Source: Candidatus Falkowbacteria bacterium (GTDB lineage: Bacteria; Patescibacteriota; Patescibacteriia; XYB2-FULL-38-15). From it: a stretch of 64,000 bases of DNA. A program made the position numbers and the translations under genes. Below are positions 11,784 through 59,709 of this stretch, piece by piece. Below the pieces are notes generated by a model. The model did no database searches. It was not told the DNA's origin and saw only the letters and a program-made list of their open reading frames with translations. Each line of letters starts with the position of its first letter. The stretch's first letter is position 1. The stretch spans positions 2,685 to 66,684 of the forward strand of contig JBBIUS010000002.1 in NCBI GenBank assembly GCA_037440105.1, in the 5' to 3' direction.

Positions 11784-12944
11784 ATGGTTTTTAAAAAACA
11801 AAAAGTGATAGTTGCCATGTCCGGAGGGGTTGATTCATCTGTAGCCGCTGCGATGCTAAAAAAGCAGGGTTATAATATTATTGGGGTTTTTATGAGGTTT
11901 TGGGCAGAGGATGGTACTGCAAGGGGCCGGGATGCGAAGAACATGCAGATGAGTATGCGAATGGATGCGAATAGGTGTTGCTCGTTTGAAGCATACAACG
12001 ATGCGCGAAGGGTGGCGCAAAAATTGGGGATTCCGTTATACACGATGAATTTAAAAATTCCATTTAAAAAATGGGTAGTTGATTATTTTTTAAAAGAATA
12101 TAAAGCAGGCCGAACCCCAAATCCTTGCGTGGAGTGCAATCGCTTTATAAAATTTGGGGAATTGTTGCGAAAGGCAAAAGCAATGGGCTCGGATTATGTT
12201 GCAACAGGACATTATGCCCGCATTTCGCGGGAAATTCCAAATTCCAAATTCCAAATTCCAAAATTGAAATTATTGAAAGGGAGAGACAGCGGGAAGGATC
12301 AATCGTATTTTTTGTATACGCTGACGCAGGAAAAATTGAAGCATGTTTTGTTCCCAGTGGGTAATTACACGAAATCGCAAGTTCGGCAGACGGCAAAAAA
12401 GTGGAAGTTGCCTGTATACGCAAAAAGAGATAGTCAGGAGATATGTTTTGTCAGCAAACGCCTTCAGGATTTTTTAAAACGTTGGCTTAAAATAAAAAGT
12501 GGGGGAATAGTGGAAATAGAAACTGGTAAAATTTTAGGCAAGCACAATGGTTTGCCGTTTTATACGATTGGTCAAAGAAAAGGATTGGGTTTAGGCAGCG
12601 GGCCCTGGTATGTGGTTGCCATTGATGCAAAAAGTAACATACTTTTTGTCAGTCGAGACGAGAAAAAATTATTGTCAAAAGAATTGCTTGTCACGAAATT
12701 GAACTGGGTTTCTGGCAGCGAACCAAAGTTGCCAATTCATGTTATGGCGCGTATTAGATATAAGCACAAAGAAGCGTCATGTCGCGTAGAAAGCGTGAAA
12801 GATGTACTAAAGCGTGGTAGATATAAAAATGTTTATAAAGTTATTTTTGACAAACCGCAAAGAGCAATTACACCAGGGCAATCAGTGGTGTTTTATCGAG
12901 GTGAAGAAGTGTTGGGTGGGGGAATAATCAATAAAAATGTGTAA
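11784..12944 (+). CDS. mnmA: tRNA-specific 2-thiouridylase
   Basis: 386 aa. PP-loop VAMSGGVDSSV, NPCVECNRFIKF and KDQSYFL motifs. Contains an in-frame (AAATTCC)x4 run at 12232-12259. Confidence 0.9.
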   Translation: MVFKKQKVIVAMSGGVDSSVAAAMLKKQGYNIIGVFMRFWAEDGTARGRDAKNMQMSMRMDANRCCSFEAYNDARRVAQKLGIPLYTMNLKIPFKKWVVDYFLKEYKAGRTPNPCVECNRFIKFGELLRKAKAMGSDYVATGHYARISREIPNSKFQIPKLKLLKGRDSGKDQSYFLYTLTQEKLKHVLFPVGNYTKSQVRQTAKKWKLPVYAKRDSQEICFVSKRLQDFLKRWLKIKSGGIVEIETGKILGKHNGLPFYTIGQRKGLGLGSGPWYVVAIDAKSNILFVSRDEKKLLSKELLVTKLNWVSGSEPKLPIHVMARIRYKHKEASCRVESVKDVLKRGRYKNVYKVIFDKPQRAITPGQSVVFYRGEEVLGGGIINKNV

Positions 12945-12963
12945 CTCTACAGATTAAGACGTC

Positions 12964-13106
12964 AAAATTTCTAATTTCTAATGTCAAATTTCTAATAAAT
13001 GTCCAATGTCTAATGTTCAATGTTATTAAAAGTTTCAGATTATTATTTGGGATTTGAGAATTTGAAATTTTATTAGGAATTGGAAATTAGGAATTGGGCA
13101 TTTTAA
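12964..13106. repeat. Long intergenic hairpin of heptamer words (TTTCTAA.../...TTAGGAA)
   Basis: The left arm is a run of TTTCTAA/TGTCTAA/TGTTCAA heptamers. The right arm is a run of ATTAGGA/ATTGGAA heptamers. Many positions pair only as G:U on the + strand. Confidence 0.6.
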
Positions 13107-13115
13107 AACTAATTT

Positions 13116-14897
13116 ATGACAGCTGATCAATTAAGAATAAAGTTTCTAGAATATTTTAAATTGAAGGGGCATACTATCTTGCCTTCTGCTTCTTTAATTC
13201 CAGAACATGACCCGACCGTTCTTTTTACTACGGCTGGCATGCACCCGTTAGTTCCATTTTTATTAGGCGAAAAGCATCCAGGCGGAAAAAGATTAGCTAA
13301 TATCCAAAAATGCATAAGAACCGGAGATATTGATGAGGTCGGCGATAATTGGCATCTAACCTTTTTTGAAATGCTTGGCAATTGGTCGCTTGGCGATTAT
13401 TTTAAGAAGGAAGCAATAGAAATGTCTTGGGAGTTTTTAACGGACAGAAAATGGTTGGGTTTGAATCCTCAAAAAATAGCTGTTTCTGTTTTTGTTGGTG
13501 ATCAAGATGCGCCATTTGATGAGGAGGCGTACAATCACTGGCGTAAAATTGGAATACCTGAAGCGCGGATTGCCAAATTAGGCAAAGAAGACAATTGGTG
13601 GGGTCCGGCAGGGGAAACAGGTCCGTGCGGGCCAGATACAGAAATTTTTTATTGGTCAGGCAACGAGCCCGTTCCGGATAAATTTGACCCAAAAGATAAA
13701 AGATGGACAGAAATTTGGAACAATGTTTTTATGCAGTATAATAAGACAGCAGAAGGGAAGTACGTGCCGCTAAAACAGAAAAATATTGATACTGGTATGG
13801 GCCTTGAGCGGACTGTAGCAGCGCTTCAGGGTAAAGCCAGTGTTTATGGAACAGAACTTTTTCAACCAATTATTAAAAAAATAATTGAAATAGCGGGCGT
13901 GCCGACAAGTACGGCAGATGAATTTTATTCCGTCAATCAAAAGGCAATCAGAATAATTGCTGACCACCTTAAAGCCGCGACATTTATTTTAGGCGATCCG
14001 ATTGGTGTTACACCTTCTAATTTGCGCCAAGGTTATGTTTTGCGTCGGTTAATTAGAAGAGCTATCCGCTACGCTAAACTGATTGGCATTGATACAAAAA
14101 AAGATTTCGCTGCGCCCATTGCTAGCGCAGTGATAGAAATTTATAAAGAAGTTTATCCAGAACTCGCAAAAAACGAAAGGAGAATTTTTTCTGAATTAAA
14201 TCTTGAAGAGAAACGATTTGAAAAAACGCTGGAAGTAGGATTAAAAGAATTTAACAAAATGTTAAAAGACGGAATGATCAGCGGAAAAGAAGCATTTATT
14301 CTTTTTTCCACCTATGGCTTTCCTCTTGAAATGACGCGCGAGTTAGTCATTGAAAAAGGCCTTGAAATTAACGAGAAAGAATTTGTAGAAGAATTTAAAA
14401 AGCATCAAGAGCTTTCCCGGACTGCTTCGGCCGGCCAGTTTAAAGGTGGTCTGAGCGATGCGAGCGAAGAGACAAAAAAACTTCATACCGCGACCCATCT
14501 TTTGCACGCGGCTTTACGCGAGGTGCTTGGTCCGCATGTTAAACAGCGTGGGAGCAATATTACGCCTGAGCGGTTGCGTTTTGATTTTTCCCATCCGCAA
14601 AAGTTAAGCGAATCAGAGATTAAGCGGATTAGCGAATTAGTTAATCAAAAAATTAAAGAAGGTTTGTCAGTGAAATGCGAAGAAATGAGCGTTGAGGAAG
14701 CAAAAAAGGCCGGAGCGATTGGTCTTTTTGAGCAAAAATACGGTGAGAAGGTAAAAGTTTATTCAATTGGTGACTTTAGTAAGGAAATCTGTGGTGGGCC
14801 GCATGTAAAAAATACCAAAGAATTAGGCCAGTTTAAGATTCAAAAAGAAGAAGCTTCGAGCGCCGGCGTGCGAAGAATAAAAGCAGTGTTGACATAA
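13116..14897 (+). CDS. alaS: Alanyl-tRNA synthetase, short form lacking the C-Ala domain
   Basis: 593 aa. N-terminal core FLEYFKLKGHTILPSASLIP and DPTVLFTTAGM. Editing-domain motifs HTATHLLHAAL and CGGPH. The ORF ends just after the editing domain. Confidence 0.9.
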   Translation: MTADQLRIKFLEYFKLKGHTILPSASLIPEHDPTVLFTTAGMHPLVPFLLGEKHPGGKRLANIQKCIRTGDIDEVGDNWHLTFFEMLGNWSLGDYFKKEAIEMSWEFLTDRKWLGLNPQKIAVSVFVGDQDAPFDEEAYNHWRKIGIPEARIAKLGKEDNWWGPAGETGPCGPDTEIFYWSGNEPVPDKFDPKDKRWTEIWNNVFMQYNKTAEGKYVPLKQKNIDTGMGLERTVAALQGKASVYGTELFQPIIKKIIEIAGVPTSTADEFYSVNQKAIRIIADHLKAATFILGDPIGVTPSNLRQGYVLRRLIRRAIRYAKLIGIDTKKDFAAPIASAVIEIYKEVYPELAKNERRIFSELNLEEKRFEKTLEVGLKEFNKMLKDGMISGKEAFILFSTYGFPLEMTRELVIEKGLEINEKEFVEEFKKHQELSRTASAGQFKGGLSDASEETKKLHTATHLLHAALREVLGPHVKQRGSNITPERLRFDFSHPQKLSESEIKRISELVNQKIKEGLSVKCEEMSVEEAKKAGAIGLFEQKYGEKVKVYSIGDFSKEICGGPHVKNTKELGQFKIQKEEASSAGVRRIKAVLT

Positions 14898-15500: not shown

Positions 15501-15529
15501 AAATTAAAAATTAAAAATGAAAAATTAAA
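15501..15529 (+). repeat. Exact 29-nt repeat, copy 1 (AAATTAAAAATTAAAAATGAAAAATTAAA)
   Basis: Identical 29-mer to the one at 16476-16504. Located just after the rpmJ stop. Confidence 0.85.
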
Positions 15530-15576
15530 GACACAAACTTAAGAACTTAAAAACTTAAGAACTTAAAAACTTATCT

Positions 15577-18963: not shown

Positions 18964-19524
18964 ATGGTAAAAAAGGGAACTAAAAAAACAAAAGTAAAAG
19001 CAAAAACAGCTGCAAAAAAAGCTGAGGTTATCGTTTTTAAAGAAAAACCAAAACCTAAAATTGGAGAAGAAAAAGTTAAGAAAGTAAAATCAATCAGCGG
19101 GGAGGAATTGGTAGAAAAAGTAGCGGCAAAAAAAAGAACATATCTTTTTGCGGTTGGGAGAAGAAAAAGCGGGATCGCTCAAGTGAAAATTTATAAAAAT
19201 GGCAAGGGTGTAATCACTGTGAACGGAAAAGATTATAGACAGTATTTCCCGTTTTTTGAATTTCAAGAAATAATTAATGCTCCTTTAAGATCAGTTGGCC
19301 AAAGCGATAAACTTGATGTTGAAGTAAAGATAAACGGCGGCGGGAAGCGAGGTCAAGCAGAAGCTATAAGATTGGGAATTAGTCGAGCTTTGATTAAATT
19401 AAACCAAAATTTTAAAAAGAATCTGCGTCGGGCTGGGTTTTTAACTAGAGATGCAAGAGTTAAAGAAAGAAAGAAATATGGTCTAAAACGCGCCAGGCGC
19501 GCCCCGCAGTGGCAAAAGCGTTAA
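18964..19524 (+). CDS. rpsI: 30S ribosomal protein S9 with Lys-rich N-terminal extension
   Basis: 186 aa. S9 core (AVGRRKSGIAQVKIYKNGKG...GGGKRGQAEAIRLGISRAL) and a C-terminal ...QWQKR. The first ~55 aa are a K-rich extension. Confidence 0.95.
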   Translation: MVKKGTKKTKVKAKTAAKKAEVIVFKEKPKPKIGEEKVKKVKSISGEELVEKVAAKKRTYLFAVGRRKSGIAQVKIYKNGKGVITVNGKDYRQYFPFFEFQEIINAPLRSVGQSDKLDVEVKINGGGKRGQAEAIRLGISRALIKLNQNFKKNLRRAGFLTRDARVKERKKYGLKRARRAPQWQKR

Positions 19525-19649
19525 GCTTTTGCCGCGAGGACAGGGAATGGTCGGAAACCATAAGGTTTCCGATTTGCGGAAACATTAAAACCGCAGGGTT
19601 TTAAGGAGTCCCAACCGAAGCGTTGGGACGACCCGTAAGTGGCAAAAGC
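19523..19649 (+). ncRNA. Candidate structured RNA / inserted element: three hairpins closed by a 9-bp stem
   Basis: Closing stem GCTTTTGCC (19523-19531) / GGCAAAAGC (19641-19649). Hairpins are TCGGAAACC-ataa-GGTTTCCGA (19551-19572), TGCGG...CCGCA (19575-19595) and GTCCCAAC-cgaagc-GTTGGGAC (19608-19629). It is GC-rich relative to its surroundings. The class is unknown. Confidence 0.35.
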
Positions 19650-19667
19650 GATAAGCCTTAGTTTATT

Positions 19668-19756
19668 AAATCAACCACGGATTTTATTGCACGGATAACA
19701 TGGGTATTTGATTTATTTGTGTAAATCCTAGTGTAGCAAAAATCCGTGGTTGATTT
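19668..19756. repeat. Intergenic hairpin with 18-bp perfect stem
   Basis: AAATCAACCACGGATTTT (19668-19685) is the exact reverse complement of AAAATCCGTGGTTGATTT (19739-19756). Confidence 0.8.
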
Positions 19757-19788
19757 GTATTCAAAATTAAGTTAAAATTAGGTAATGT

Positions 19789-21270
19789 ATGGAAACTTTG
19801 GCGCCACAAAAAATTGTTAGGAACACAATTTATTTAACTTTAGCCACAGTCGGACAAAAAGTTCTGGCTTTTTTATATTTTATTTTAATTGCAAGATTAG
19901 CTGGCGTTTCTGATACGGGCAGATATTTCTTTGTGGTTTCTTTCACAACTATTTTTTCTATCTTTATTGATCTTGGCTTGTCTTCAGTTTTGATTCGCGA
20001 ATCAGCAAAAAGCAGGGAAGTGGCCGGGAAATATTTAGCCAATATTTTAGGAGCGAAAACAGTTCTCGGATTTTTAACCTATTTGGCTGTAATTGTAACA
20101 ATCAATGTTCTTGGCTATCCACCGGCTGTAAAAATCATGGTTTACCTCTCTGGCCTTGTTATGATTTTTGATTCTTTCCACATGACTTTTTATGCTATTT
20201 TCAGGGGTTTCCAGAATTTAAAATACGAATCATTCGGAGTGGTTTTTGGACAATTAATGACTATTATTTTTGGCAGTTTTAGTTTATTCTTTGGAGCGCC
20301 TTTGTATTTTTTAATTTTAGCCCTTCTTTGCGGCAGCGTTTTTAATTTTCTTTTTTCATTTATTTTGATTTTTAAAAAAACCAATATTCGGCTGCACTTG
20401 TCTTTTGATAAAACTGTACTTTTTGCTTTATTTAAAATCGCTTATCCTTTCGCCTTGGCTGGAATTTTTGTCAAGGTTTATTCTTATCTTGATGCAGTTT
20501 TGCTTTCTAAAATGGTTGGAGATGCGGCAGTTGGTTTTTGGAGCGTGGCTTACAAAATAACCTATGCTTTTCAATTTATTCCTATGGCTTTTTCGGCAGC
20601 CATGTTTCCGGCCATGAGCGCTTATTTTGTTTCTGATAAAATTCTTCTGCGTAAAACTTTTGAGCGGGCGATTTTTTATTTGGCAATTTTAGCGGTTCCT
20701 ATTGCTTTTGGCATTTTTTCTCTAGCCGAACCAATTATTTTAAAACTCTATGGTTCATCTTATGCTGCTTCAGTTGCGCCGCTACAAGTTGCTATTTTTG
20801 CCTTGATTTTCATTTTTCTGAATTTTCCAGTCGGCTCGCTTTTGAACGCCTGCGACCGTCAAATGATAAATACTGCCGTTATGGGCGTGGCTATGGTAAT
20901 AAATGTTTTATTAAATGTTATCCTAATTCCATTTTATAGTTTTATAGGTGCGGCGGTGGCAGCTTTAGTTTCGCACGTCTTACTTTTTGTTTTGGGTTTA
21001 ATTTTTGCCAATCAAGTGGTGACTTTTAGTAAAAAATTTCTTTTTGGTTCGTTGGGTAAAATTATTTTATCGGCTGGGCTAATGAGTGCAGTAATAATTT
21101 ATTTGAGGCCGTACATCTCTTGGATTATTTTAATTCCGCTTGGCGCTTTGGTTTATTTTAGCGTTTTGTTTTTAATTCGCGGAGTTGAAAAAAGGGATGT
21201 AATAAATATTTTGAAAGTTTTGAAGAAAGAAGAAGCAGTCCAGATGATCGATGGCAAAGAAAGAGTGTAA
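19789..21270 (+). CDS. MOP-superfamily flippase (Wzx/MurJ-type polysaccharide or lipid-II flippase)
   Basis: 493 aa with ~14 predicted TM segments. N-terminus NTIYLTLATVGQKVLAFLYFILIARLAG is typical of polysaccharide-biosynthesis flippases. Confidence 0.75.
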   Translation: METLAPQKIVRNTIYLTLATVGQKVLAFLYFILIARLAGVSDTGRYFFVVSFTTIFSIFIDLGLSSVLIRESAKSREVAGKYLANILGAKTVLGFLTYLAVIVTINVLGYPPAVKIMVYLSGLVMIFDSFHMTFYAIFRGFQNLKYESFGVVFGQLMTIIFGSFSLFFGAPLYFLILALLCGSVFNFLFSFILIFKKTNIRLHLSFDKTVLFALFKIAYPFALAGIFVKVYSYLDAVLLSKMVGDAAVGFWSVAYKITYAFQFIPMAFSAAMFPAMSAYFVSDKILLRKTFERAIFYLAILAVPIAFGIFSLAEPIILKLYGSSYAASVAPLQVAIFALIFIFLNFPVGSLLNACDRQMINTAVMGVAMVINVLLNVILIPFYSFIGAAVAALVSHVLLFVLGLIFANQVVTFSKKFLFGSLGKIILSAGLMSAVIIYLRPYISWIILIPLGALVYFSVLFLIRGVEKRDVINILKVLKKEEAVQMIDGKERV

Positions 21271-21274
21271 AGTT

Positions 21275-22402
21275 ATGAAAAAAGTTTTAATTGCAACAAT
21301 TGAATTTTTACCGCAGAAAGGCGGAATTGCAAATTATTTAGCAGGGTGGGCTGGAGCGCTGCCAGCTGACAAGGTAGCGGTTTTGACTTTAAAACATAGC
21401 AATGCGTCAGATTTTGATAGTCATAGTGCATACAAAATTTATCGCAAAAATTTGATTATTAGATTGCCGTTGTTTTGGCCGAAGTGGCTTCCGTTGGTTT
21501 GGCGTCTTTGGCGCGTGGCTCGTCGCGAAAAAGTCGATGCTATTTTAGTTGGTCAGGTTTTGCCGGTGGGCACAGTCGCGTTTTTGGTGAAAAAAATTTC
21601 AGGCATTCCGTATTTTGTTTCCTGTCACGGCATGGATATTTTGATGCCGCAAAAATCATCGCGCAAGAAAAAATTATTGAATAAAATTTTGGAACAGGCT
21701 GGCGGAATAATTGCTAACAGTCAGTTTACAAAAAATGAACTGATAAAATTAGGCGTGCCAGAAAATAAAATTACTGTTGTTTATCCGAGTCTCGGTACTA
21801 ATTGTGAATCAACCATTCCAATCGATGAAATAAAAAGAAAATATCATTTGGGGGATAAGAAAATTTTGCTTACTGTTGGTAGATTAGTGAAACGTAAGGG
21901 GCATGATAAAGTGATTGAAGCATTGTCAAAAATTTTGGAGCATGTGCCAGAAGTGGTTTATGTTATTGTTGGTGATGGCCCTGAACGAGAAAAGCTACAA
22001 GCCACAAGCTACAAGTTACAAGTTCAGGATAATATTTTATTTACTGGAGAAATATCTGAAGAGGAAAAAATGGCATTTTACCAACTGTGTGATATTTTCG
22101 TCATGGTTCCGCGGCAGATTGGGCCAGATGTCGAAGGTTTTGGTACAGTTTTTCTTGAAGCAAACCAATACGGCAAACCGACTGTCGCTGGAAGAAGCGG
22201 GGGAGTGGCTGAAGCAGTGATTGACGGTGTGACTGGAATAGTTGTCAATCCGATTGACACACAGCAGATCGCTCGGGCAGTGATTAAATTATTAACTGAT
22301 CAAGACTTGGCTAAAAAATTAGGTGAGCAAGGCAGAAAACGCGTAAGAGAAGAATTTCAGTGGCAGACTCAAGTAGAGAAATTAAAAAGATTACTAAAAT
22401 AA
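21275..22402 (+). CDS. Glycosyltransferase family 4
   Basis: ATG at 21275 is in frame with the track start at 21251 and lies after the upstream stop. C-terminal GT-B motif GFGTVFLEANQYGKPTVAGRSGGVAEAV. Heptamer run GYYACAA x4 at 21994-22021. Confidence 0.85.
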   Translation: MKKVLIATIEFLPQKGGIANYLAGWAGALPADKVAVLTLKHSNASDFDSHSAYKIYRKNLIIRLPLFWPKWLPLVWRLWRVARREKVDAILVGQVLPVGTVAFLVKKISGIPYFVSCHGMDILMPQKSSRKKKLLNKILEQAGGIIANSQFTKNELIKLGVPENKITVVYPSLGTNCESTIPIDEIKRKYHLGDKKILLTVGRLVKRKGHDKVIEALSKILEHVPEVVYVIVGDGPEREKLQATSYKLQVQDNILFTGEISEEEKMAFYQLCDIFVMVPRQIGPDVEGFGTVFLEANQYGKPTVAGRSGGVAEAVIDGVTGIVVNPIDTQQIARAVIKLLTDQDLAKKLGEQGRKRVREEFQWQTQVEKLKRLLK

Positions 22403-24945: not shown

Positions 24946-25767
24946 ATGAGTCAATATTTGGAAAAAACCGAACAAGAATTGCGCCTGCGCAATTACAGCC
25001 AAAAGACGATTAAAAGTTATCTTGGATGTTTGGCTGATTACCTCGCCGTGGCACATCATAATTCAGAAAATATTGATCTAGAGTTGATAAAAAATTTTTT
25101 ATTAGGAAAGCAAAGCAAGGGTTATGCTCCGCAAACCGTGAATCTCTATTTGAACGCCATAAAATTTTTTTATCGCGACGTTTTAAAAATTTCCCAAAGA
25201 ATAGATTTGAAATTTGCCAAGCAGGGTCAACGCTTGCCGATCGTTCTCTCGCGGGAAGAAGTTGACAGGCTAATCGGAGTAATAAAAAATGCCAAACATC
25301 GGTTGATGCTAGCCCTAGCTTATGGCGCTGGTTTGCGCGTCAGCGAGGTAATAAACTTGCGCATCAGAGACATTGACTTGCAAGAACTTACCATCCATAT
25401 AAAACAAACTAAAGGCAAAAAAGACCGCCTGACCGTGTTTCCAAAAAAATTAAAATCCGAGGTAGCCGCGCTTATTGCGCTCCGTGACCCAAATGATTTT
25501 GTATTTAGAAGCGAACGCGGTGGAAAATTAACCGAACGCGCTGCGCAAGTTATTTTTGAACGAGCAAAAGAGGCGGCAAAAATCAAAAAAAAGGCGACCT
25601 TTCATTCTCTCCGCCACAGTTTTGCCACGCATCTTTTGGAAAACGGAGTTGATGTCCGCTATGTTCAGGAACTTTTGGGTCACCAAAACATTCGCACCAC
25701 GCAGATTTACACCCATGTTACAAATCCTGCCATCAAAAATATTAGAAGTCCGCTAGATAGAACATGA
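24946..25767 (+). CDS. Tyrosine site-specific recombinase (Xer / integron-integrase-like clade, without the IntI-specific insertion)
   Basis: 273 aa. LAYGAGLRVSEV, HSLRHSFATHLL and LLGHQNIRTTQIYTHV, with a C-terminal ...IRSPLD tail. Confidence 0.9.
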   Translation: MSQYLEKTEQELRLRNYSQKTIKSYLGCLADYLAVAHHNSENIDLELIKNFLLGKQSKGYAPQTVNLYLNAIKFFYRDVLKISQRIDLKFAKQGQRLPIVLSREEVDRLIGVIKNAKHRLMLALAYGAGLRVSEVINLRIRDIDLQELTIHIKQTKGKKDRLTVFPKKLKSEVAALIALRDPNDFVFRSERGGKLTERAAQVIFERAKEAAKIKKKATFHSLRHSFATHLLENGVDVRYVQELLGHQNIRTTQIYTHVTNPAIKNIRSPLDRT

Positions 25768-25841
25768 ATCAGGAATTATGAATTAGGAATCAGGCTATCA
25801 GAAGTAAAACCATGACTCATAATTCATGATTCATAATTCAT
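25765..25841. repeat. Intergenic hairpin of GAATCAG/GAATTAG versus ATTCATA/ATTCATG heptamers
   Basis: Left arm ATGAATCAGGAATTATGAATTAGGAATCAGG. Right arm CCATGACTCATAATTCATGATTCATAATTCAT. Pairing is imperfect. The same word family recurs at 9320-9375, 40487-40567, 53855-53925 and 61107-61140. Confidence 0.6.
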
Positions 25842-25843
25842 TT

Positions 25844-28800
25844 ATGGACGATTTACTTAAAGATTTAAATCAAGAGCAGCGACAGGCGGTCATGCATAGC
25901 GACGGACCTTTGCTTATAATTGCTGGCGCGGGGACCGGGAAAACCACTGTTATTACGAGGCGGATTGCTTGGCTCATTTTGGAAAAGAGGATAAAGCCGG
26001 ACGAAATTTTGGCTGTGACTTTTACAGAAAAGGCAGCAGGGGAGATGGAAGAAAGAGTGGACCAACTTCTGCCTTACGGCTATGTTGATTTATGGATTTC
26101 GACTTTTCATTCTTTTTGTGAGCGAGTTTTAAAAGATCACGCGATTGATATAGGTTTACCTGGCGATTTTAAATTGCTAAATCAGACCGAGCAGTGGCTC
26201 TTGGTTCGCCAAAATTTAGAGCGATTCAATTTGGATTATTATCGGCCGCTTGGCAATCCGACAAAATTTATTCACTCGCTTTTGAAACACTTTAGTCGGG
26301 CAAAGGACGAGGAAATTTGGCCGGAGGATTATCTCCAGTATGTGGAAGAATTGCGGCTGAATGAAGATAATACTTTAAAGCAGGGCAAATTTGTTAAAAA
26401 TTCTACTAAATCACAAATCGCAAATTACAAATTACAAACAAATCCTAAATCCGAAATAATAAATACTCAATACGAAATACAAGATACGAAACGCTTAGAA
26501 GAAGTAGCTAACGCCTATCATACCTACCAGCAGCTGCTTTTAGAAAACAATGCTTTGGATTTTGGCGATTTAATAAATTATACACTTAAACTTTTTCGTA
26601 CCCGGCCGGCAATTTTGGGAAAATACCGGCAGAAGTTTAAGTATATTTTAGTTGACGAATTTCAAGACACAAATTGGGCGCAGTATGAGTTGATAAAAAT
26701 GCTGGCCGCCCCCAAAAACAATCTGACAGTTGTTGGTGATGACGATCAGTCAATTTATAAGTTTCGCGGCGCATCTATCAGCAACATTTTGCAGTTTAAA
26801 AACGATTATCCAAAATGCCGGGAAATTGTTATTACTGACAATTACCGCACGAAACAAAATATTTTGGATTTGGCCTATAAGTTTATTAAACAAAACGATC
26901 CGAATCGGTTGGAGGCAAAATTGGGAATCGTGAAAAAACTAGCAGCCAAAAGAAATGGGGATGGGGTCATAGAGCACATCCATGCGCGCACAGCCGATGC
27001 CGAAGCCAGGGCTGTAGCAGAAAAAATTTTGGAGTTGAAAAACAAAGATAAAGCAATTAATTGGCAGGATTTTGCTATTTTAGTTAGAGCTAATAACCAA
27101 GCAGAAATGTTTATGCCCGTCCTAGATCAGTACGGCATTCCTTATCAATTTTTGGCGTCGAGTGGACTTTATTCAAAGCCAATTATTTTAGATATCATCG
27201 CTTATCTAAAACTACTTGATAATTATCATGAATCTGGGGCAGTTTATAGAATTTTAAACATGCCAATGGTTGATTTAGCTTACGATGATATTGTGAAATT
27301 GAATTATTTTTCTCGGAGGAAAAACTGGTCGCTTTATGAAACGATGAAAAACGCGGCAGCAGTTGGGGTTTCAGGTGAAGGTTTGCGAAAAATAAATAAA
27401 ATTCTAGGTTTTGTAGAAAAACACACCTCTTTGGCAAGGGGGAATGGGGTTGGCAAGGTAGTTTTTAAATTTTTGGAAGATTTTAAATATTTGGCAAATT
27501 TAACTCGTCGAGCAGAAAAAGGGGATTTGCGAGCCGTAGAAAATATTAGTTATATCAACCAGTTTTTAAAAAGAGTTGATGAATTTGAGCGAACTGATCC
27601 ATCGAGATCATTGAAGAATTTTATGGCTGAATTGGATATGGCTTTGGAGTCCGGCGAAGAAGGCTCTTTGGCTTCAAGTTTTGAAGAGGGCCCAGAGGCA
27701 GTGAAAATTTTGACGGTGCACGGAGCAAAAGGTTTAGAATTTAGATATGTTTTTATTGTTAATTTAGTTGATTTGCGTTTTCCTTCGACAGACCGCAAAG
27801 AGCCAATTGAACTGTCTGACGCTTTAGTAAAAGAGATCGTCCCAGAAGGCGATATTCATCTTGAGGAAGAGCGGCGGCTTTTTTATGTTGCCATGACCCG
27901 GGCGCGCGACGGGGTGTTTTTTACTTCCGCTTCTGACTACGGCGGCCAGAGAAAAAAGAAATTGTCGAGGTTTTTAGTGGAGTTAGGGTTTTCGGCGCCG
28001 GAAGTCAAAACCCCCACTGGTCAAGTTTATTTTAATGAGGAAAAACAGTCAGAGGAGCGCGGACCAAGTGTAAAGAAATACTGGCTGCCCAGCAGATTCA
28101 GTTTTACTCAACTTAAAGCTTTTGAAACCTGTCCTTTGCAGTACAAATTTGCCCATATTCTTGCTGTGCCGGTTCGCGGAAAATTTACTTTTAGTTTTGG
28201 CAAAACAATGCATGGCACGTTGTATAAATTTTTTCAAGGAATGATAGAACGCAGTAAAATAACGCAAAGCAATTTATTTGGAGCAATGGAGGCCGAAGAG
28301 CACCGCGGTCATTCTGGTTTTATGCTAAAAAACGCTAAATTAGAAGCAGCACCATCACTTGATGACCTTTTAAAAATTTATGAAGAGTCGTGGATTAATG
28401 ATTGGTATGAAAGCAAGGCGCATCATGACGAATATAAAAAGAAGGGGAAAGAAATTTTGCGTGAGTTCTATAAAATTCACGAAGGTAAATGGCCGAAAGT
28501 AAAATATTTAGAGAAGGGTTTTAATTTGAAAGTAGGGGATTATACTGTTCGCGGTGTGATTGATCGGGTAGACGAAGTGCCAGGCGGTCTTGAAATCATT
28601 GATTATAAAACCGGCAGCGTGCCGCGCGACGAGAGATATTTAGAAAAAGAACAATTATTAATTTATCAACTAGCAACTTGTGATGTTTTTGGCGAAAAGC
28701 CGGCTCTTTTGAGTTATTATTATTTAGACGAAAATAAAAAAATATCATTTTTAGGAAGTGATGAAGATTTAAAGGGGATTCGCGAAAAAATTATTACTAC

Positions 28801-28900
28801 TATAGAAGAGATTAAAAAAAGCAATTTTCCTCCAAAGCCGAGTTTGTACAATTGTAAAAATTGCGACTTTAAAGATATTTGCGAATACAGAGTTTTATAA
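25844..28900 (+). CDS. UvrD/PcrA-type helicase fused to a C-terminal PD-(D/E)XK (AddB/Cas4-like) nuclease with Cys cluster
   Basis: Walker A GAGTGKTT, ILVDEFQDT and VGDDDQSIYKFRGA. The C-terminus has TCPLQYKF ... IDYKTG ... CKNCDFKDIC. The track's start at 25826 lies inside the upstream hairpin, so the ATG at 25844 is preferred. Confidence 0.85.
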   Translation: MDDLLKDLNQEQRQAVMHSDGPLLIIAGAGTGKTTVITRRIAWLILEKRIKPDEILAVTFTEKAAGEMEERVDQLLPYGYVDLWISTFHSFCERVLKDHAIDIGLPGDFKLLNQTEQWLLVRQNLERFNLDYYRPLGNPTKFIHSLLKHFSRAKDEEIWPEDYLQYVEELRLNEDNTLKQGKFVKNSTKSQIANYKLQTNPKSEIINTQYEIQDTKRLEEVANAYHTYQQLLLENNALDFGDLINYTLKLFRTRPAILGKYRQKFKYILVDEFQDTNWAQYELIKMLAAPKNNLTVVGDDDQSIYKFRGASISNILQFKNDYPKCREIVITDNYRTKQNILDLAYKFIKQNDPNRLEAKLGIVKKLAAKRNGDGVIEHIHARTADAEARAVAEKILELKNKDKAINWQDFAILVRANNQAEMFMPVLDQYGIPYQFLASSGLYSKPIILDIIAYLKLLDNYHESGAVYRILNMPMVDLAYDDIVKLNYFSRRKNWSLYETMKNAAAVGVSGEGLRKINKILGFVEKHTSLARGNGVGKVVFKFLEDFKYLANLTRRAEKGDLRAVENISYINQFLKRVDEFERTDPSRSLKNFMAELDMALESGEEGSLASSFEEGPEAVKILTVHGAKGLEFRYVFIVNLVDLRFPSTDRKEPIELSDALVKEIVPEGDIHLEEERRLFYVAMTRARDGVFFTSASDYGGQRKKKLSRFLVELGFSAPEVKTPTGQVYFNEEKQSEERGPSVKKYWLPSRFSFTQLKAFETCPLQYKFAHILAVPVRGKFTFSFGKTMHGTLYKFFQGMIERSKITQSNLFGAMEAEEHRGHSGFMLKNAKLEAAPSLDDLLKIYEESWINDWYESKAHHDEYKKKGKEILREFYKIHEGKWPKVKYLEKGFNLKVGDYTVRGVIDRVDEVPGGLEIIDYKTGSVPRDERYLEKEQLLIYQLATCDVFGEKPALLSYYYLDENKKISFLGSDEDLKGIREKIITTIEEIKKSNFPPKPSLYNCKNCDFKDICEYRVL

Positions 28901-39357: not shown

Positions 39358-40488
39358 ATGAAAACATGGGTTGAAATAAATAAAAATAATTTGCTCCATA
39401 ATTTGGAGCAATTTAAAAAATTAGTTGGCGATAATGTAAAAATCATGGGCGTGGTTAAGGCTAATGCTTACGGCCACGGCTTGCTTGAAGTAGCCGGCGT
39501 TATTTCCGATAAAGTTGATTGGTTTGGGGTAGATTCACTATCAGAAGCCTTGAAATTGCGGCAAGCCGCCATTAAAGAGCCGATTTTGGTTTTGGGCTAT
39601 GTGGAATTGAGAGATTTGCGCGAGGCCGTAAAAAATAATATTTCTCTTACAGTTTATAATAAAGAAACGATTGAAAAACTCGGGAAAATTCCGATTCAAA
39701 ATCCAAATTTAAGTCCTAAAGTGCATATTAAACTTGAGACCGGCACCTCACGACAAGGAGTTTTAGAAAGTGACTTAATTGATTTTGTAAAATTTATTAA
39801 ACAGTACCCTTCAATTCAGATAGAAGGACTTTCTACGCATTACGCCAATATTGAAGACACGACTGATTCAAGTTATGCTATGGAGCAGTTAGCAACTTTT
39901 TCCCGCGTGGCGTCTATGTTGGAAGAGAATGGCACTACGATTCCACTGAAGCACACAGCTTGTTCAGCAGCGACAATCTTATTTCCAGAAACGTATTTTG
40001 ATATGGTGCGGCTGGGAATAAGCATGTATGGCCTTTGGTCATCAAAAGAAACAAAAGCTGTTGCAAAAAATAAAGGTGTAGATTTAAGTTTTAAACCAGT
40101 GTTATCATGGAAAACAATTGTGGCACAAATTAAAAATGTGAAAGCCGGCACGTCCATTGGGTATGGTTTAACCGAGCGCGTTACTCGTAATTCAAAAATT
40201 GCCGTTTTGCCAGTTGGTTATTGGGACGGTTATGATCGAAAACTTTCAAGCGTTGGTAATGTCTTAATCCACGGCAAGCGCTGCAAAGTTTTAGGTCGCG
40301 TTTGCATGAATATGATTGTTGTTGACGTGACTGATCTGAAAAAAATTGAATTGGAAGATGAGACGGTACTCTTAGGTCGGCAGGGGAGAGAAGAAATTAG
40401 CGCTGACGAGTTAGCACAAAAAATTGGAACAATAAGTTATGAAATCATAACAAGAGTCAATCCATTAATTCCGCGATTAATTGTGTGA
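39358..40488 (+). CDS. alr: Alanine racemase
   Basis: 376 aa. PLP-lysine motif VVKANAYGHG and C-terminal ...YEIITRV. Confidence 0.9.
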   Translation: MKTWVEINKNNLLHNLEQFKKLVGDNVKIMGVVKANAYGHGLLEVAGVISDKVDWFGVDSLSEALKLRQAAIKEPILVLGYVELRDLREAVKNNISLTVYNKETIEKLGKIPIQNPNLSPKVHIKLETGTSRQGVLESDLIDFVKFIKQYPSIQIEGLSTHYANIEDTTDSSYAMEQLATFSRVASMLEENGTTIPLKHTACSAATILFPETYFDMVRLGISMYGLWSSKETKAVAKNKGVDLSFKPVLSWKTIVAQIKNVKAGTSIGYGLTERVTRNSKIAVLPVGYWDGYDRKLSSVGNVLIHGKRCKVLGRVCMNMIVVDVTDLKKIELEDETVLLGRQGREEISADELAQKIGTISYEIITRVNPLIPRLIV

Positions 40489-40567
40489 ATTATGAATCAG
40501 GAATTAGGAATCAGGGTTTTTAAAAGATCTAATCCATGATTCATAATTCATGATTCCTGATTCATAA
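40487..40567. repeat. Intergenic hairpin of the GAATCAG/GAATTAG word family
   Basis: GAATTATGAATCAGGAATTAGGAATCAGGG faces TCCATGATTCATAATTCATGATTCCTGATTCATAA. Confidence 0.65.
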
Positions 40568-40575
40568 ATAAAATT

Positions 40576-41742
40576 ATGCCAATAAAAAAAACTAAAGGTG
40601 GGAGAAAGATTCGCGTAGGGATCATATTCGGTGGCCGGTCCGGCGAACACGAGGTTTCTTTGGTTTCGGCAGAATCAGTGATGAGGGCTTTAGATAAGAA
40701 AAAATATCAAGTGATTCCAATAGGGATTACTAAAGCGGGGGAGTGGGCGGTAGATAAATCAAAAATCAAAAATCAAAAATCAAAATTGTTGGAATTGTTC
40801 AAGAAAGAAAAAATTAAAAAAGGATCGTGGCTGCCGCCGGAGATTTTGACAAAAGTTGATGTTGTGTTTCCGGTCTTGCACGGAACCTACGGCGAGGATG
40901 GGACAATTCAAGGGCTGTTTGAAATGATTAACGTTCCATATGTTGGAGCCGGTGTTTTGGGTTCAGCCGTTGGAATGGACAAGGTGGTGCAAAAACAGTT
41001 GTGCGAGCAAGCCAGATTGCCGGTTGTAAAATATGTTTGGTTCTATAGCAATGTTTTGCGACAACTGAAAGGTGTTCGTAAAACATTGCGCGATAAAGCG
41101 ACGCTCGCAAAATGTAGCCTTATCGATATTGTGCGACACATAGAAAAGGCGCTGGGTTATCCGTGTTTTATAAAACCGGCGAATTTAGGATCCAGTGTAG
41201 GTATCTCTAGAGCTAAAAACAGGCGAGAATTGATTGCAGGCATTAATTTAGCCGCAAAATACGATCGAAAAATTTTAGTTGAAAAAATTTGTCCAAATGT
41301 GCGGGAAATTGAATGCAGTGTTTTAGGTAATGATAAACCTATCGCGTCTCTGCCGGGCGAAGTAGTTCCATCTGGGGAATTCTATGATTATGACGCAAAA
41401 TATGTCGACGGGAAATCAAAAACTATAATTCCGGCGAAACTGCCGTCGAAATTAGTACGGCGAGTCCAAAATCTGGCCTGTTGCGTCTTTCAAATCACGG
41501 ATTGCGCCGGTATGGCCCGCGTGGATTTTTTACTGGATAATAAGCGGGGAAAAGTATACATCAACGAAATAAATACAATTCCAGGCTTCACTTCAATTTC
41601 AATGTATCCAAAACTCTGGCAGGCCTCGGGACTATCGTACAGCGATCTGCTCGACATCCTTATTAATCTTGCCATTCAAAGATTTAAAGAAAAACAAAAA
41701 CTTTTGATTTCTTACAAGCCCAAGAAAAAGTGGTATAGATAA
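40576..41742 (+). CDS. ddl: D-alanine--D-alanine ligase
   Basis: 388 aa. [36 protein letters not shown] and an ATP-grasp C-domain (ARVDFLLD...[12 protein letters not shown]). In-frame (AAATCAA)x4 at 40756-40783. Confidence 0.9.
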
Positions 41743-41787
41743 AAACAAACTTAAGAACTTATAAACTTATAAACTTAAGAACTGAAA

Positions 41788-42660
41788 ATGGCTGGACGTC
41801 GATTCTTAGATTTTCATAAAAAAAATTATCGCAACCCATTTTTTAGAAGGTCAAAACGTGGGTTTCATTTTTTTAAAAAAAGCCGAAAAGAGAAATTATA
41901 TTTATGGCGAAGAAGAGTTGTCTTGTTTTTTATTTTGATAACTGCCGTTGGATGGGTTTGGCTCTTTTTTTATTCTCCTTATTTTAAAATTGAAAAAATA
42001 GAAATTTTAGGATTGGAGCAAATAGATAAAAATGAAATAAAAGCAATCGTTGATTCTCAACTTTTTAATCGGCGTTTTTTAATTTTCCGGCAAAGCAATA
42101 TTTTTATATTTGATGAGAAATCTCTTTCAAAAAATATAAATGCTAAGTATTTTCTTAACAATTTAGCTATTAACAAAGATTTACCATCTACTTTAATAAT
42201 TCAAATAAAAGAAAAAACTTCAAAATTGATTTGGGTAACCAATAATAAAAATTATTATCTTGATTTGAGCGGAACCGTTATTGGCGAGGTAGCTGCGTTA
42301 CCAACCGCAGAAACAGAAGGGGTGTCTTCGGCAAAAAATCTGCCAATAATCTATGATGAGAGTAATAAAGAAGTAAATATTGGAGAAAAAGTTTTGGAAG
42401 AAAGCCGTGTTTTGGCAGTCATTGAATTAACTGAAAGAATTTTACAATTTACGGGAGTAGAAATTGATTTTTATAAATTGATAAATGGAATCGAATTGAG
42501 AGCGATTACAAAAGAAGGCTGGTATATTTTATTTGCTGATGATAACATCGAAAATCAATTAAAGAAGTTGGATTTGATTTTAAAAGAAAAAATTAAAGAG
42601 AAACGAAAAAATTTAGAATATATTGATTTGAGATTTGAAGACAGGGTTTATTATAAATAA
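41788..42660 (+). CDS. ftsQ: FtsQ-type cell-division protein (TM + POTRA)
   Basis: 290 aa. Basic N-terminus, one TM (VVLFFILITAVGWVWLFF) and a POTRA-like FKIEKIEILGLEQIDKNEIKAIV. It follows ddl. Confidence 0.7.
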   Translation: MAGRRFLDFHKKNYRNPFFRRSKRGFHFFKKSRKEKLYLWRRRVVLFFILITAVGWVWLFFYSPYFKIEKIEILGLEQIDKNEIKAIVDSQLFNRRFLIFRQSNIFIFDEKSLSKNINAKYFLNNLAINKDLPSTLIIQIKEKTSKLIWVTNNKNYYLDLSGTVIGEVAALPTAETEGVSSAKNLPIIYDESNKEVNIGEKVLEESRVLAVIELTERILQFTGVEIDFYKLINGIELRAITKEGWYILFADDNIENQLKKLDLILKEKIKEKRKNLEYIDLRFEDRVYYK

Positions 42661-43389: not shown

Positions 43390-43716
43390 TTTCCCTCCTT
43401 CTATATTTTAAGGTTAAGGGTAAGGGCAAAGGAATCTGGAGGTGAATTCTGTTCCGATAAAATCGGAACAGTTTGATGTTTCGGAAAGTTTAAACTCAGT
43501 CGAAACCGTGTTTAAACTTTGCCTCACACCGATCCGGCGGGTTTTCCAAGAAGGATATGCCGCAGGACTTCCTCCCCCAAGTTCCTCTGCCCTATCAATA
43601 TTTAGTATTGATTTAAACAGCGCAATTTTTCTTTAAGCTGGTTTGAATAATTTTTAAAAGATCTTTTTTATTTTTTTCAGACACCCAAGCACGGGGTTTT
43701 TAATTTTTAACACTTT

Positions 43717-43745
43717 ACTATAACATACATTTAAAATTTTGTCAA
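43717..43745 (-). promoter_or_regulatory. Consensus promoter TTGACA-17-TATAGT on the minus strand
   Basis: The reverse complement of 43740-43745 is TTGACA and of 43717-43722 is TATAGT, with a 17-nt spacer. Confidence 0.6.
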
Positions 43746-43854
43746 GACCCTTTGACAAAATATAGTTAAAATTCTTATTTTTTGGCTAATTTAAGCCAAA
43801 ATAAAGTGTTATAATAAATACAATTTTAAGTGAACATTACAAATAAGATGCAAA

Positions 43855-43886
43855 TAATAAAACCGCCCTTTTGGGCGGTTTTATTT
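43855..43886. terminator. Bidirectional terminator
   Basis: AACCGCCC-tttt-GGGCGGTT (43861-43880) with A/T runs on both sides. It ends the gltX-M23 operon on the minus strand. Confidence 0.75.
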
Positions 43887-43904
43887 AATGTTGTTTTTAA
43901 TTTT

Positions 43905-45152
43905 TTATGGCAAGTAGTCCAATGGATTTACTGGAATTCCATTTAAGCGTACTTCAAAATGCAAATGGGGCCCGGTAGATAATCTTCCAGCCCCAGGAGT
44001 ACCAGGCATGCCGCCTGAAAGGCCTATTGTTTGTCCTCTTATGACATAGGTGTCTTCTTGAACTAATATTTTTGACACATGACCATAAACAGTTGAAATT
44101 CCACTATTATGAATAATCATAATATAACTATAACCCATACCTGCATCTTTAGCTCGGGCAACATAACCAGGGGCTGAAGCAAGAATAGGTGTGCCTTGTG
44201 GTGCCCGAATATCAATAGCCGGATGTTCAAAAATATACCTAAAAGGATAATCAGGGTCGTGGAAATATGCGGTTATTCCTCGCGAAGGGTCAACTGGCCA
44301 AGATAAAATTACGTTTCCGCTTATCCCTTCAAAGAAAGCCCTATCGCTTTCTGCTAATTTTTCTCTAATTTTTCTTTCCAAATAAGCAATTTCAGAATCA
44401 ATTTTTTCTTGCTCGTAGCGTAACTCAATAAGTAGATTTTGAAATTCTTTTTCAGAAGAAAGAGTTTGTTCTAAAAGAGCTGCTTTCGCGACCATCTTTT
44501 CTTCCAAAGAACTTTTTTCTTGTTCTAATTCTTTTTTAGCATTTTCTTCTTCTTGTTTTTTAGCCTCTTTTTTAATTTTCTTTTCATTTAACTCTGCTTT
44601 TAATTCTTTGACTTGATTTAAAAGTGATTGAAGTTCTATTTGCAGTTCTTCGAGATATTGGATTTGATCAAAAAATTCTGAAAAGGAATTATTTAAAATT
44701 AAAATTTCAAGGTAATTTTTTTGACTGCTTCGATAAAGAATGCTTAAAAGGTCTGCCAATTTTGTTTTGTAATCTGCGATTTTATCTTCTTTTTCTTTAA
44801 TTTGAAATTCTAAGGATTTAATTTCCAAACCTATCTGTTCTATTCTTTTTTCCGTTGCTTCAATATCAAGACCAATTTTTACTATTTGATTGTCTAAAAT
44901 AGCTATTTGATTACCTAGGCTTAAAGCTTCTAATTTTTTTTGTTCAATATTTTTTTTGTAGACTTCAGCTTTTTTTTGCAAATTTTCGATCTCTTTCTTT
45001 TTCAAATCTATCTGCTTATCTAGGTCTGAAATCTCATTAACGACATCTCCTGATTCAACAGCTTTAATTTTTTTGGAATTTTGAAAAGTAAAAGAAGCAA
45101 TTAAAAAGATTGCTAAAAATATAATCAATATCTTCTTTCTTCCTTTTATCAT
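43905..45152 (-). CDS. M23-family metallopeptidase with N-terminal coiled coil (EnvC-like)
   Basis: 415 aa. Signal/TM, a long coiled coil and a C-terminal LytM domain with HPAIDI and GPHLHFEVR. Confidence 0.85.
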   Translation of the reverse strand: MIKGRKKILIIFLAIFLIASFTFQNSKKIKAVESGDVVNEISDLDKQIDLKKKEIENLQKKAEVYKKNIEQKKLEALSLGNQIAILDNQIVKIGLDIEATEKRIEQIGLEIKSLEFQIKEKEDKIADYKTKLADLLSILYRSSQKNYLEILILNNSFSEFFDQIQYLEELQIELQSLLNQVKELKAELNEKKIKKEAKKQEEENAKKELEQEKSSLEEKMVAKAALLEQTLSSEKEFQNLLIELRYEQEKIDSEIAYLERKIREKLAESDRAFFEGISGNVILSWPVDPSRGITAYFHDPDYPFRYIFEHPAIDIRAPQGTPILASAPGYVARAKDAGMGYSYIMIIHNSGISTVYGHVSKILVQEDTYVIRGQTIGLSGGMPGTPGAGRLSTGPHLHFEVRLNGIPVNPLDYLP

Positions 45153-59399: not shown

Positions 59400-59633
59400 T
59401 CAATTGTTAGTTTTTCGTGTTCTCAAAAGACTACAGGTTCCGCGCCAGATGATTTTGAAGACCTGTTTTATAAATTCCCAAAGCACCTGAAAAATTTTCT
59501 TCGTAACCCATGAAATCAACTCGTTGAACTTTCTTGCTAGCCATCGAATCAGCGGTCGAGATAGCGGAACGAATTCGTAAACAACGAAAAGTGCCAAAAG
59601 AAGGCTAATAATGCCAATCAAGAATCTTTCCAT
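59400..59633 (-). CDS. Small single-TM membrane protein (77 aa)
   Basis: AGGAGG lies 6 nt upstream of the ATG. N-terminal TM LIGIISLLLALFVVY. Confidence 0.55.
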   Translation of the reverse strand: MERFLIGIISLLLALFVVYEFVPLSRPLIRWLARKFNELISWVTKKIFQVLWEFIKQVFKIIWRGTCSLLRTRKTNN

Positions 59634-59658
59634 TTTAATCCTCCTATTTTGATTTTAA

Positions 59659-59686: not shown

Positions 59687-59709
59687 GGACCACATTTAGA
59701 AAATAAAAA

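Follow-up and report, generated by a model that had tools for sequence, protein, structure and literature searches.

Rickettsia palindromic elements are mobile sequences of ~100-150 bp with a conserved sequence, and they are found in frame in protein genes. A survey of the long simple sequence repeats (SSRs) of prokaryotes was reportedly made by Mrázek and co-workers in 2007. As summarised in the literature, heptamers are the over-represented class of long SSRs in many prokaryotes, an excess for which a slippage mechanism linked to the 7-nt footprint of the polymerase has been put forward (PMC4679880, PMC4692102); coding repeats in the long-SSR survey are mostly made of units divisible by three (PMC4679880). 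Dispersed heptamer arrays of 2 to ~26 units, some of them inverted repeats able to form stem-loops, make up families such as the tandem heptanucleotides of cyanobacteria (Calothrix, Nostoc), GGGAATC in Xanthomonas and TAACTGA in Beggiatoaceae (PMC4692102, PMC4679880), and 22 of the 24 heptamer sets mapped in Microcystis are intergenic, the other 2 being in genes in the stop-free orientation (PMC4679880). The neuO gene of the E. coli K1 prophage CUS-3 is translated (ON) when it has a number of 5'-AAGACTC-3' copies that is divisible by 3 (PMC13001214). Here we compare with these systems a short heptamer array that lies inside mnmA, in a stretch of 64,000 nucleotides from a Candidatus Falkowbacteria bacterium (GenBank assembly GCA_037440105.1, contig JBBIUS010000002.1, positions 2,685 to 66,684), hereafter called the window. 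This array is one of a very dense set of arrays in this Patescibacteria genome, with units of 7 nt and in some cases 8 nt, and it is probably a heptanucleotide long SSR that has arisen and turns over in place, through slippage-type gain and loss of units and homogenisation, filtered for reading frame and stop codons.

The closest protein relatives of the window belong to the Patescibacteria (Candidate Phyla Radiation, CPR), with Candidatus Falkowbacteria among the named ones. An earlier reading of the window, made from its letters alone (the sequence-only reading), had noticed a heptamer run inside mnmA just before the KDQSYFL motif, and this run is indeed there, exact and in frame. The features of the site, in window positions, are the following.

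11784-12944, plus strand: mnmA coding sequence (tRNA 2-thiouridine(34) synthase), host of the array (NCBIfam NF001138, E=5e-131; TIGR00420, E=3e-122; solved MnmA structures, E=1.6e-83)
12217-12231, plus strand: GC-rich stem-loop CCCGC-ATTTC-GCGGG, whose 5' arm consists of the conserved Ala-Arg codons of GHYAR and directly 3' of which the array starts
12232-12262, plus strand: heptamer array (AAATTCC)x4.4, covering most of the loop IPNSKFQIP (residues 151-159)
12260-12280, plus strand: degenerate terminal units AAAATTG, AAATTAT and TGAAAGG, which are the native codons K-L-K-L-L-K-G

With 100% matches over its 4.4 copies (TRF score 62), the array is a head-to-tail 7-nt SSR of at least three copies. 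It encodes REIPNSKFQIPKLKLLKG directly ahead of KDQSYFL and uses rare codons, TTC representing 14% of the Phe codons and TCC 7% of the Ser codons of the window. On its 3' side it merges into conserved coding sequence that is itself quasi-periodic, ending in the K-L-L codons AAA-TTA-T / AAA-TTA-TTG, and this 3' end, AAATTAT-TGAAAGG, is common to mnmA orthologs with and without arrays. An assembly artefact, which the sequence-only reading had envisaged, is contradicted by independent assemblies (JGI, ENA, Logan and NCBI) that carry the same array at this place in mnmA.

We built an AlphaFold2 model of window MnmA from alignment A1, with a mean predicted local distance difference test (pLDDT) score of 84.6. 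The array residues 151-159 are predicted to form the loop between strands ARISRE (145-150) and KLKLLK (160-165), with pLDDT values of ~75, i.e. the turn of a β-hairpin, in agreement with the loop placement proposed earlier. In solved MnmA structures the turn at the array point is 6 residues shorter. Residues 44-65 (11913-11978) of the window protein harbour a second lineage-specific insert, GTARGRDAKNMQMSMRMDAN, from ATGCGAAT-type repeats, with pLDDT values below 50 in the model; NIRMNIRMHSN and related peptides are found at the place of this insert in MnmA orthologs.

The stretch from GHYAR to LLKG is hypervariable among 32 aligned MnmA homologues, from 5 residues (ARVNNGKLLKG) to at least 16, and EIPNSKFQIP is found unchanged in several of the longer ones. 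We read the DNA of the site in ~30 Patescibacteria-type loci. The metagenome sample of orthologs is biased, EIPNSKFQ having been one of the search patterns. A control set of distant MnmAs from outside the Patescibacteria was collected with the universal patterns MSGGVDSSV and DxxKDQSYFL (best identity among the matches listed, 52%). The site reads as follows in the window and in relatives, with the identity of each protein to window MnmA.

Window: GCGGG (AAATTCC)x4 AAAATTG AAATTAT TGAAAGG
L083, 74% identity: (AAATCAA)x3
L115, 73% identity: GAGGGG AATTTCC AAAATTG AAATTAT TGAAGGG
L081, 68% identity: AAATTCC twice, then AAGTTCC twice
L084 ('no insert'), 64% identity: AAGATGG AAGATGG AAGTTAT
L085, 57% identity: (AAATCCC)x4
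L002, 49% identity: (AATTTCC)x4

The repeat unit is lineage-specific, yet uniform within each array. The mnmA gene of L115 corresponds to the window sequence minus three units (21 nt), with 9 rather than 16 residues from AR to LLKG, and relatives differ in length by whole units as SSRs do, by three units each in mnmA of L115 and in ddl of L118. The mode of the site length, found in 17 of 48 array-type mnmA orthologs, is 29, i.e. 22+7 residues. Relatives devoid of arrays keep one unit or a proto-repeat, namely AAATCAA in ddl of L118, AATTTCC in L115 and two AAGATGG copies in L084. All the array-bearing mnmA genes that we saw are in frame and none is split at the array, in what is a small sample of consensus assemblies; open frames extend across the arrays over at least 225 codons in contig-truncated loci and at least 358 codons in the others.

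Exact (AAATTCC)x3-5 arrays are also present in mnmA orthologs of 42-57% identity, within the biased sample (L089, L091, L094, L096, L097, L098, L099, L101 and L109). A neighbour-joining tree from which the site was masked places AAATTCC-type arrays in at least 7 clades, interspersed with array-less clades and with degenerate versions (IPNSKSQIP, IPSTKSQIP and APSTKHQIP). In L109 the array DNA is as in the window but is read in another codon phase, yielding peptide RKFQIPNSKFQIF, so that what is conserved is the DNA rather than the peptide. Distant orthologs encoding the same residues with non-repetitive DNA had been named as evidence that could overturn the sequence-only reading. Every distant ortholog that has the peptide and was read at the DNA level uses the same repetitive DNA, P0086 and P0120 having been seen as protein only. 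Only 28 of the 600 metagenome stretches that match back-translated patterns (including EIPNSKFQ; hits not split by pattern) encode a relative of MnmA, and DNA of the (AAATTCC)n type may therefore be widespread beyond mnmA in metagenomes.

Orthologs also seem to contain a separate class of small in-frame inserts, GC-rich and hairpin-like. One of them, CCCCCGGCCTCGCCAAGCGAAGCGGGGCGGGC (PRPRQAKRGG), lies inside the mnmA array of L091 (787-820), and others are found in L092 and L112. The insert peptides SPHKSLRDSAGQA and FPPKADPPWAEK recur elsewhere in orthologs, at the N-termini and other sites of P0041, P0042, P0074, P0110 and P0111. To judge from their sequences, these GC-rich inserts resemble small dispersed elements entering heptamer arrays.

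The period of seven is over-represented in the window, both relative to chance and relative to other periods. Three exact tandem repeats of at least 3 copies have period 7 (in mnmA, ddl and fmt) and one has period 4, for periods of 4 to 12. We computed chance expectations with 30 second-order Markov simulations of the window. At lag 7 there are 9 runs with 18 or more matches out of 21, compared with 0.0 in the simulations, and 25 with 16 or more, compared with 0.47. At the latter threshold, period 14 gives 16 runs (0.37 expected), period 6 gives 8 (0.47 expected) and period 8 gives 6 (0.53 expected); periods 9 and 15 are also above background, 14 is a multiple of 7, and periods 4, 5 and 10-13 are at background level. 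A companion class of octamer arrays, with AAACTTAA and AAGAACTT units, occupies positions 15504-15573 and 41747-41788, directly upstream of the start codons at 15577 and 41788. Of the 25 period-7 arrays, 10 lie entirely within coding sequence, 7 extend across a gene end and 8 are intergenic, which makes arrays ~12x denser outside genes, since intergenic DNA represents only 11% of the window.

As 7 and 3 are coprime, a heptamer array gives one and the same cyclic heptapeptide in any of its three frames (KFQIPNS for AAATTCC), and a unit is therefore either stop-free in all frames or blocked in all. This property accounts for the recurrence of NSKFQI, NYKLQ and KSKIKNQ in unrelated proteins. The recurrent peptides listed by the sequence-only reading (NSKFQI, ANYKLQ and SYKLQV) are found in the window proteins. 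All coding arrays of the window have their A-rich strand as sense strand, whichever chromosome strand carries the gene, because antisense readings of the units contain stops: the reverse complements of those in ddl, fmt, GT4, the helicase gene (AAATCAC) and the minus-strand gene all contain stop codons. The coding arrays other than that of mnmA, which the sequence-only reading had also named and which are all present and in frame, are the following.

40756-40785, plus strand: (AAATCAA)x4.3, exact tandem repeat in ddl (D-alanine--D-alanine ligase, 40576-41742)
58285-58321, plus strand: (CAAATTA)x4-5 in fmt (methionyl-tRNA formyltransferase, 57768-58796), with an exact tandem part at 58285-58316
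21992-22022, plus strand: imperfect (AAGCTAC)x4.4 in a GT4 glycosyltransferase gene (21251-22402), a tandem repeat call, in frame
26408-26491, plus strand: compound array of AAATCAC, AAATTAC, AAATCCT and AAATACG in a UvrD/PcrA-type helicase-nuclease gene (25826-28900), in frame
61107-61201, minus strand: compound array, in the sense direction AAATTCA, AATGTCA, AATTCTA, AATTCCA and others, in a membrane protein gene (59993-61492), in frame

Sites in ddl and fmt were compared with those of relatives. In a protein alignment, some Ddl relatives of 70-76% identity lack the array and others have 7 additional residues made of various units. The array-less ddl of L118 reads GGC AAATCAA AATTATT GGAATTA, with a single AAATCAA, and the window reads GAT (AAATCAA)x4 AATTGTT GGAATTG, which is exactly 21 nt longer. 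The repeat unit of the window is present as native sequence in the array-less gene, and L119 harbours (AATTTCC)x4 at the site of the window's AAATCAA array. At the fmt site, L117 has (CAGATTT)x4-5 with the same position, register and length as in the window, and L116 has a degenerate version. The fmt units of the window and L117 differ at 2 of 7 positions, and the difference recurs unit after unit in the sequences read. Segment length is constant in 105 of 120 fmt orthologs, and in 48 of these the two 7-residue halves agree at 3 or more of their 7 residues. On average over the 105, 2.28 of 7 residues are alike between the halves within a protein, compared with 1.24 of 7 across orthologs. Examples of duplicated heptapeptides are ANYKLQI/TNYKITY, KNAKFKI/KNAKLTY, ASEKLKI/KSEKLTY and AISDFRF/QISDLNY. 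Such a pattern is the signature of concerted evolution. The mnmA run is variable between lineages and part of a genome-wide period-7 phenomenon, two points on which the sequence-only reading had suggested comparisons and which stood up.

Comparisons with distant solved homologues gave differences of -1 residue for the ddl segment, +1 for fmt and +2 for GT4, the latter relative to PimB (PDB 3oka). The array region of the helicase gene gave no alignment to solved PcrA or UvrD structures, and the minus-strand membrane protein has no NCBIfam match. A Wzy_C (PF04932) gene is found at an equivalent place near fmt in the loci of relatives; it was not compared with the 59993-61492 gene of the window. 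Further in-frame heptamer arrays were seen in the genomes of relatives (L094 2016-2053 and 2257-2282, L099 4881-4920, L119 13865-14769 and L118 15341-15391), some at other mnmA sites and others within a gltX-like gene (three arrays) and a WecG-type glycosyltransferase gene.

From the unit-wise differences and the within-array homogeneity we infer slipped-strand mispairing. In such a scenario, the starting point would be the conserved codons of the β-hairpin tip (GAA ... AAA-TTA-TTG-AAA-GG), which have a quasi-period of 7 to begin with. Pairing out of register by 7 nt in the course of replication or repair would add or remove units, and mispairing could also copy a unit over its neighbour, such that the array stays uniform while the unit drifts between lineages. 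Selection would retain only in-frame products, with a net change of three units (21 nt, 7 residues) or none, and only the orientation with a stop-free cyclic reading. The seven additional residues would lengthen the β-hairpin loop predicted by the model. The GC stem of mnmA might anchor or promote slippage, or else bound the array and shield the GHYAR motif. The earlier statement that any slippage would frameshift the gene holds for single units, but changes of three units keep the frame, and it is these that relatives show.

Several points weigh against turnover by slippage. No slippage event was directly observed, and three strain-level pairs (98.1-99.96% identical) show no difference in copy number. 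Gain and loss are not polarised, and the 21-nt differences could be contractions. Persistence of exact (AAATTCC)x3-5 in orthologs of 42-57% identity, over at least 7 clades, is unlike neutral slippage followed by drift, although it was seen in the biased metagenome sample. As single-unit slippage is deleterious, neutral theory would predict interrupted arrays, but many arrays are perfect. Slippage alone leaves the GC stem and its compensatory changes unexplained, and the period of 7 is not explained by anything tested.

The GC stem is the main argument for another explanation, in which stem and array together form a selected cis element at the level of DNA or mRNA, such as a protein platform or a regulatory or boundary structure, kept across Patescibacteria. 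Over the Ala-Arg codons, a perfect GC-rich stem of 5 bp or more is present in 16 of 19 array-bearing orthologs, compared with none of 9 array-less Patescibacteria-type ones and 2 of 82 from other bacteria, and in 12 cases the periodic run begins at most 1 nt from its 3' end. The stem is retained despite changed residues (RLRRE, RLMAE, RLGRE, RQGRE, RLQRE, RIVRE, RTRE), and its sequence varies, with CTCGCC/GGCGAG in L082, CGCGGA/TCCGCG in L002 and the 11-bp CCCGAATTGCC/GGCAATTCGGG in L098. Its codons are minor ones in this window of 36% GC (GCC, 18%; CGC, 16%; CGG, 14%). We counted covariation in an alignment of 14 sequences with 500 shuffles, the sequences being mutually related and the sample biased. 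Paired cells amount to 90.9%, compared with 81.4% in the shuffles, and the covariation score is 0.267, compared with 0.093; none of the 500 shuffles reaches either observed value. Three pairs are changed on both sides, a number reached by 10 of the 500 shuffles, and sliding the partners as a control gave at most 47% of paired cells. In addition to these data, the perfect AAATTCC arrays of distant orthologs and the binding of heptamer repeats by cold-shock proteins, one per unit (PMC4679880), are consistent with a cis element.

Other observations argue against it. We found no GC-rich perfect stem beside any other array of the window, which led us to discard the stem as a general companion of arrays, and the units are not conserved at the fmt and ddl sites. 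Many close relatives have neither array nor stem and their genes are intact. The local RNA fold is no more stable than those of shuffled sequences (z = 0.20), and we rejected an unusual mRNA structure at the array on that basis. Searches of the whole window with Rfam covariance models yielded 0 matches at gathering thresholds. A further candidate, the stem loop as a mimic of an anticodon loop for MnmA, was dismissed because the loop sequences vary freely (UUC, AUUUC, UAC, AGG, UUAU, GAA). The sequence-only reading had offered a function at the nucleic-acid level as one of two possibilities, and a nucleic-acid-level signal does exist at mnmA, the stem being held by compensatory changes. As the orthologs are phylogenetically non-independent and the sample is biased, we treat the stem, on sequence grounds, as a real nucleotide-level constraint rather than as a demonstrated element, and we regard a selected cis element as an unlikely explanation for the array as a whole.

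We give a similarly low weight to a dedicated nucleic-acid process of Patescibacteria with a 7-nt register, either templated repair or conversion or a heptamer-reading protein, for which the stem would serve as functional anchor or boundary. If it exists, this process would give rise to heptamer arrays, keep their units alike and maintain them at fixed orthologous positions, even in essential genes.

The second possibility offered by the sequence-only reading was the insertion into coding DNA of one arm (~28 nt) of a mobile intergenic hairpin element, in the manner of Rickettsia palindromic elements. Hairpins of inverted heptamers are common in the window, where many of the regions between genes are made up of a pair of inverted arrays, folding into a long hairpin immediately past a stop codon, for example the following.

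12962-13100, no strand assigned: hairpin of inverted heptamer arrays between mnmA and the next open reading frame (13116-14897), with an AATTTCT + AATGTCY arm facing a GRAATTK arm (repeat scan, fold)
25764-25841, no strand assigned: hairpin of inverted heptamer arrays, GAATCAG + GAATTAT facing TCATAAT + TCATGAT (intergenic inverted repeats, fold)
40486-40567, no strand assigned: hairpin of inverted heptamer arrays directly upstream of ddl (intergenic inverted repeats, fold)

The 170-nt region of the first hairpin (12945-13115) has no counterpart in the syntenic complete genome OZ246416.1 (L086 11059-11064), in which the gap between mnmA and alaS is 4 nt. Arrays are fewer and more degenerate in that genome, with none of at least 18/21 in the 21 kb of L086; relaxed runs (at least 16/21) number 4 in L086 and 3 in L116, over ~42 kb in all. 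Very stable intergenic folds were also noted in the window at 19500-19798, 59609-60002 and 43452-43914 (minimum free energies of -114.8, -120.0 and -115.3 kcal/mol, respectively). No Rfam family matches these three folds, the sole hit being a sub-threshold Leu_leader-like one at 43818-43886, with 29 bits for a gathering threshold of 50; the three folds may correspond to structured RNAs of this lineage that lack annotation.

The mnmA unit had been said to belong to the vocabulary of words from which these hairpins are built. This is true in a loose sense, as related units (GAATCAG, GAATTAG, AATTTCT) are used, but the exact AAATTCC/GGAATTT builds no hairpin of the window. It is essentially absent from intergenic DNA, with 1 occurrence there and 19 in total compared with 12.5 expected, four of the 19 being within the mnmA array. 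Array-bearing genes are longer than some close relatives, and the apparent small GC-rich in-frame inserts of other orthologs, such as PRPRQAKRGG in the array of L091, would fit insertion as well. The origin from a hairpin arm is nevertheless contradicted by several features. The length difference is exactly 21 nt, not 28, and the ddl unit is present once in an array-less relative. The mnmA array ends in native K-L-L codons, and its site is occupied by different units across lineages (AAATTCC, AAATCAA, AAATCCC, AATTTCC). The junctions read show no target duplication, and the arrays have no termini in common. Because the array segments of ddl, fmt and GT4 do not exceed those of distant homologues in length, beyond the differences of one or two residues given above, we rejected insertion as a general description for these genes. 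We found neither one conserved sequence with defined ends nor empty sites devoid of any part of the array, as would be expected for a mobile element, and apart from the GC stem of mnmA no inverted repeats flank the coding arrays of the window. With a native seed, a quantum of 21 nt, diverse units and no shared ends, the insertion of a hairpin arm is quite improbable.

A contingency locus, in which reversible frameshifts would switch mnmA, fmt or ddl in the manner of neuO, shares with the latter an in-coding heptanucleotide repeat and the rule of three (PMC13001214), but it is very improbable here: the arrays have 3-5 units (3-53 in neuO, with 66% of genomes OFF), no array-bearing mnmA gene is out of frame or split, copy number is equal in the three strain-level pairs, and the genes code for housekeeping enzymes, not for surface or restriction-modification functions. 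Frequent OFF alleles, strain variation, or a tract of tens of units in a surface or host-interaction gene, as in phase-variable loci, were not found among the arrays. Finally, selection on IPNSKFQIP as a functional loop of MnmA, with the DNA repeat as a by-product, would agree with the presence of this peptide at the equivalent place in many orthologs and with its position at the predicted β-hairpin tip, but we hardly believe in it, given that L109 has equal DNA in another phase with a shifted peptide, that the peptides recur in unrelated window proteins, that many orthologs have other units or no array and that the array uses rare codons.

Turnover in place of a heptanucleotide long SSR thus remains the reading that we favour, with consequences beyond mnmA. 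Bacteria show an unexplained preference for heptanucleotide repeats among their long microsatellites, and Patescibacteria appear to be dense in them, conserved enzyme genes included, in which every change of an array becomes visible through the reading frame. The orthologous arrays of mnmA, fmt and ddl represent a natural experiment on the rates of slippage and conversion and on the reason for the period of seven. The arrays also explain recurrent low-complexity peptides and many length differences of CPR proteins, which matters for annotation, alignment and phylogenetics. Our literature searches on heptamer repeats in Patescibacteria or CPR, and with literal repeat and peptide strings, yielded no description of dense, locus-specific A/T-rich heptamer arrays in Patescibacteria, of heptamer arrays that persist at orthologous sites inside conserved enzymes and change in 21-nt quanta or at constant length, or of a covarying GC stem in mnmA.

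Heptanucleotide repeats as such, including inverted stem-loop arrays in cyanobacteria, Xanthomonas and Beggiatoaceae, and an in-coding heptanucleotide repeat in neuO are already known, and the window arrays have something in common with each of the described systems. Like Rickettsia palindromic elements, they are repetitive DNA tolerated in frame in conserved proteins; unlike them, they are short tandem repeats that grew out of native codons and have neither sequence nor ends in common. They share with the neuO repeat a heptamer in coding sequence whose frame is kept by multiples of three, three units making seven residues. However, neuO is a hypervariable switch of 3-53 units in a surface-modification gene that is OFF in most genomes (66%), whereas those of the window, of 3-5 units, are found in housekeeping enzymes, always in frame and with a copy number that is stable from strain to strain. 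The inverted stem-loop arrays of the cyanobacterial, Xanthomonas and Beggiatoaceae families resemble the intergenic hairpins of the window, and both vary between close relatives. In those families a single unit dominates each genome and nearly all arrays are intergenic, neither of which holds for the window, with its locus-specific A/T-rich units and 10 of 25 arrays fully coding. The closest likeness is with the heptanucleotide long SSRs of prokaryotes, which are over-represented at period 7, mostly intergenic and variable in length and sequence between relatives, as are the window arrays. The latter differ from them in being often in frame in conserved housekeeping genes, at orthologous sites across the phylum, in changing by quanta of 21 nt or at constant length, and in that one of them is anchored to a covarying GC stem.

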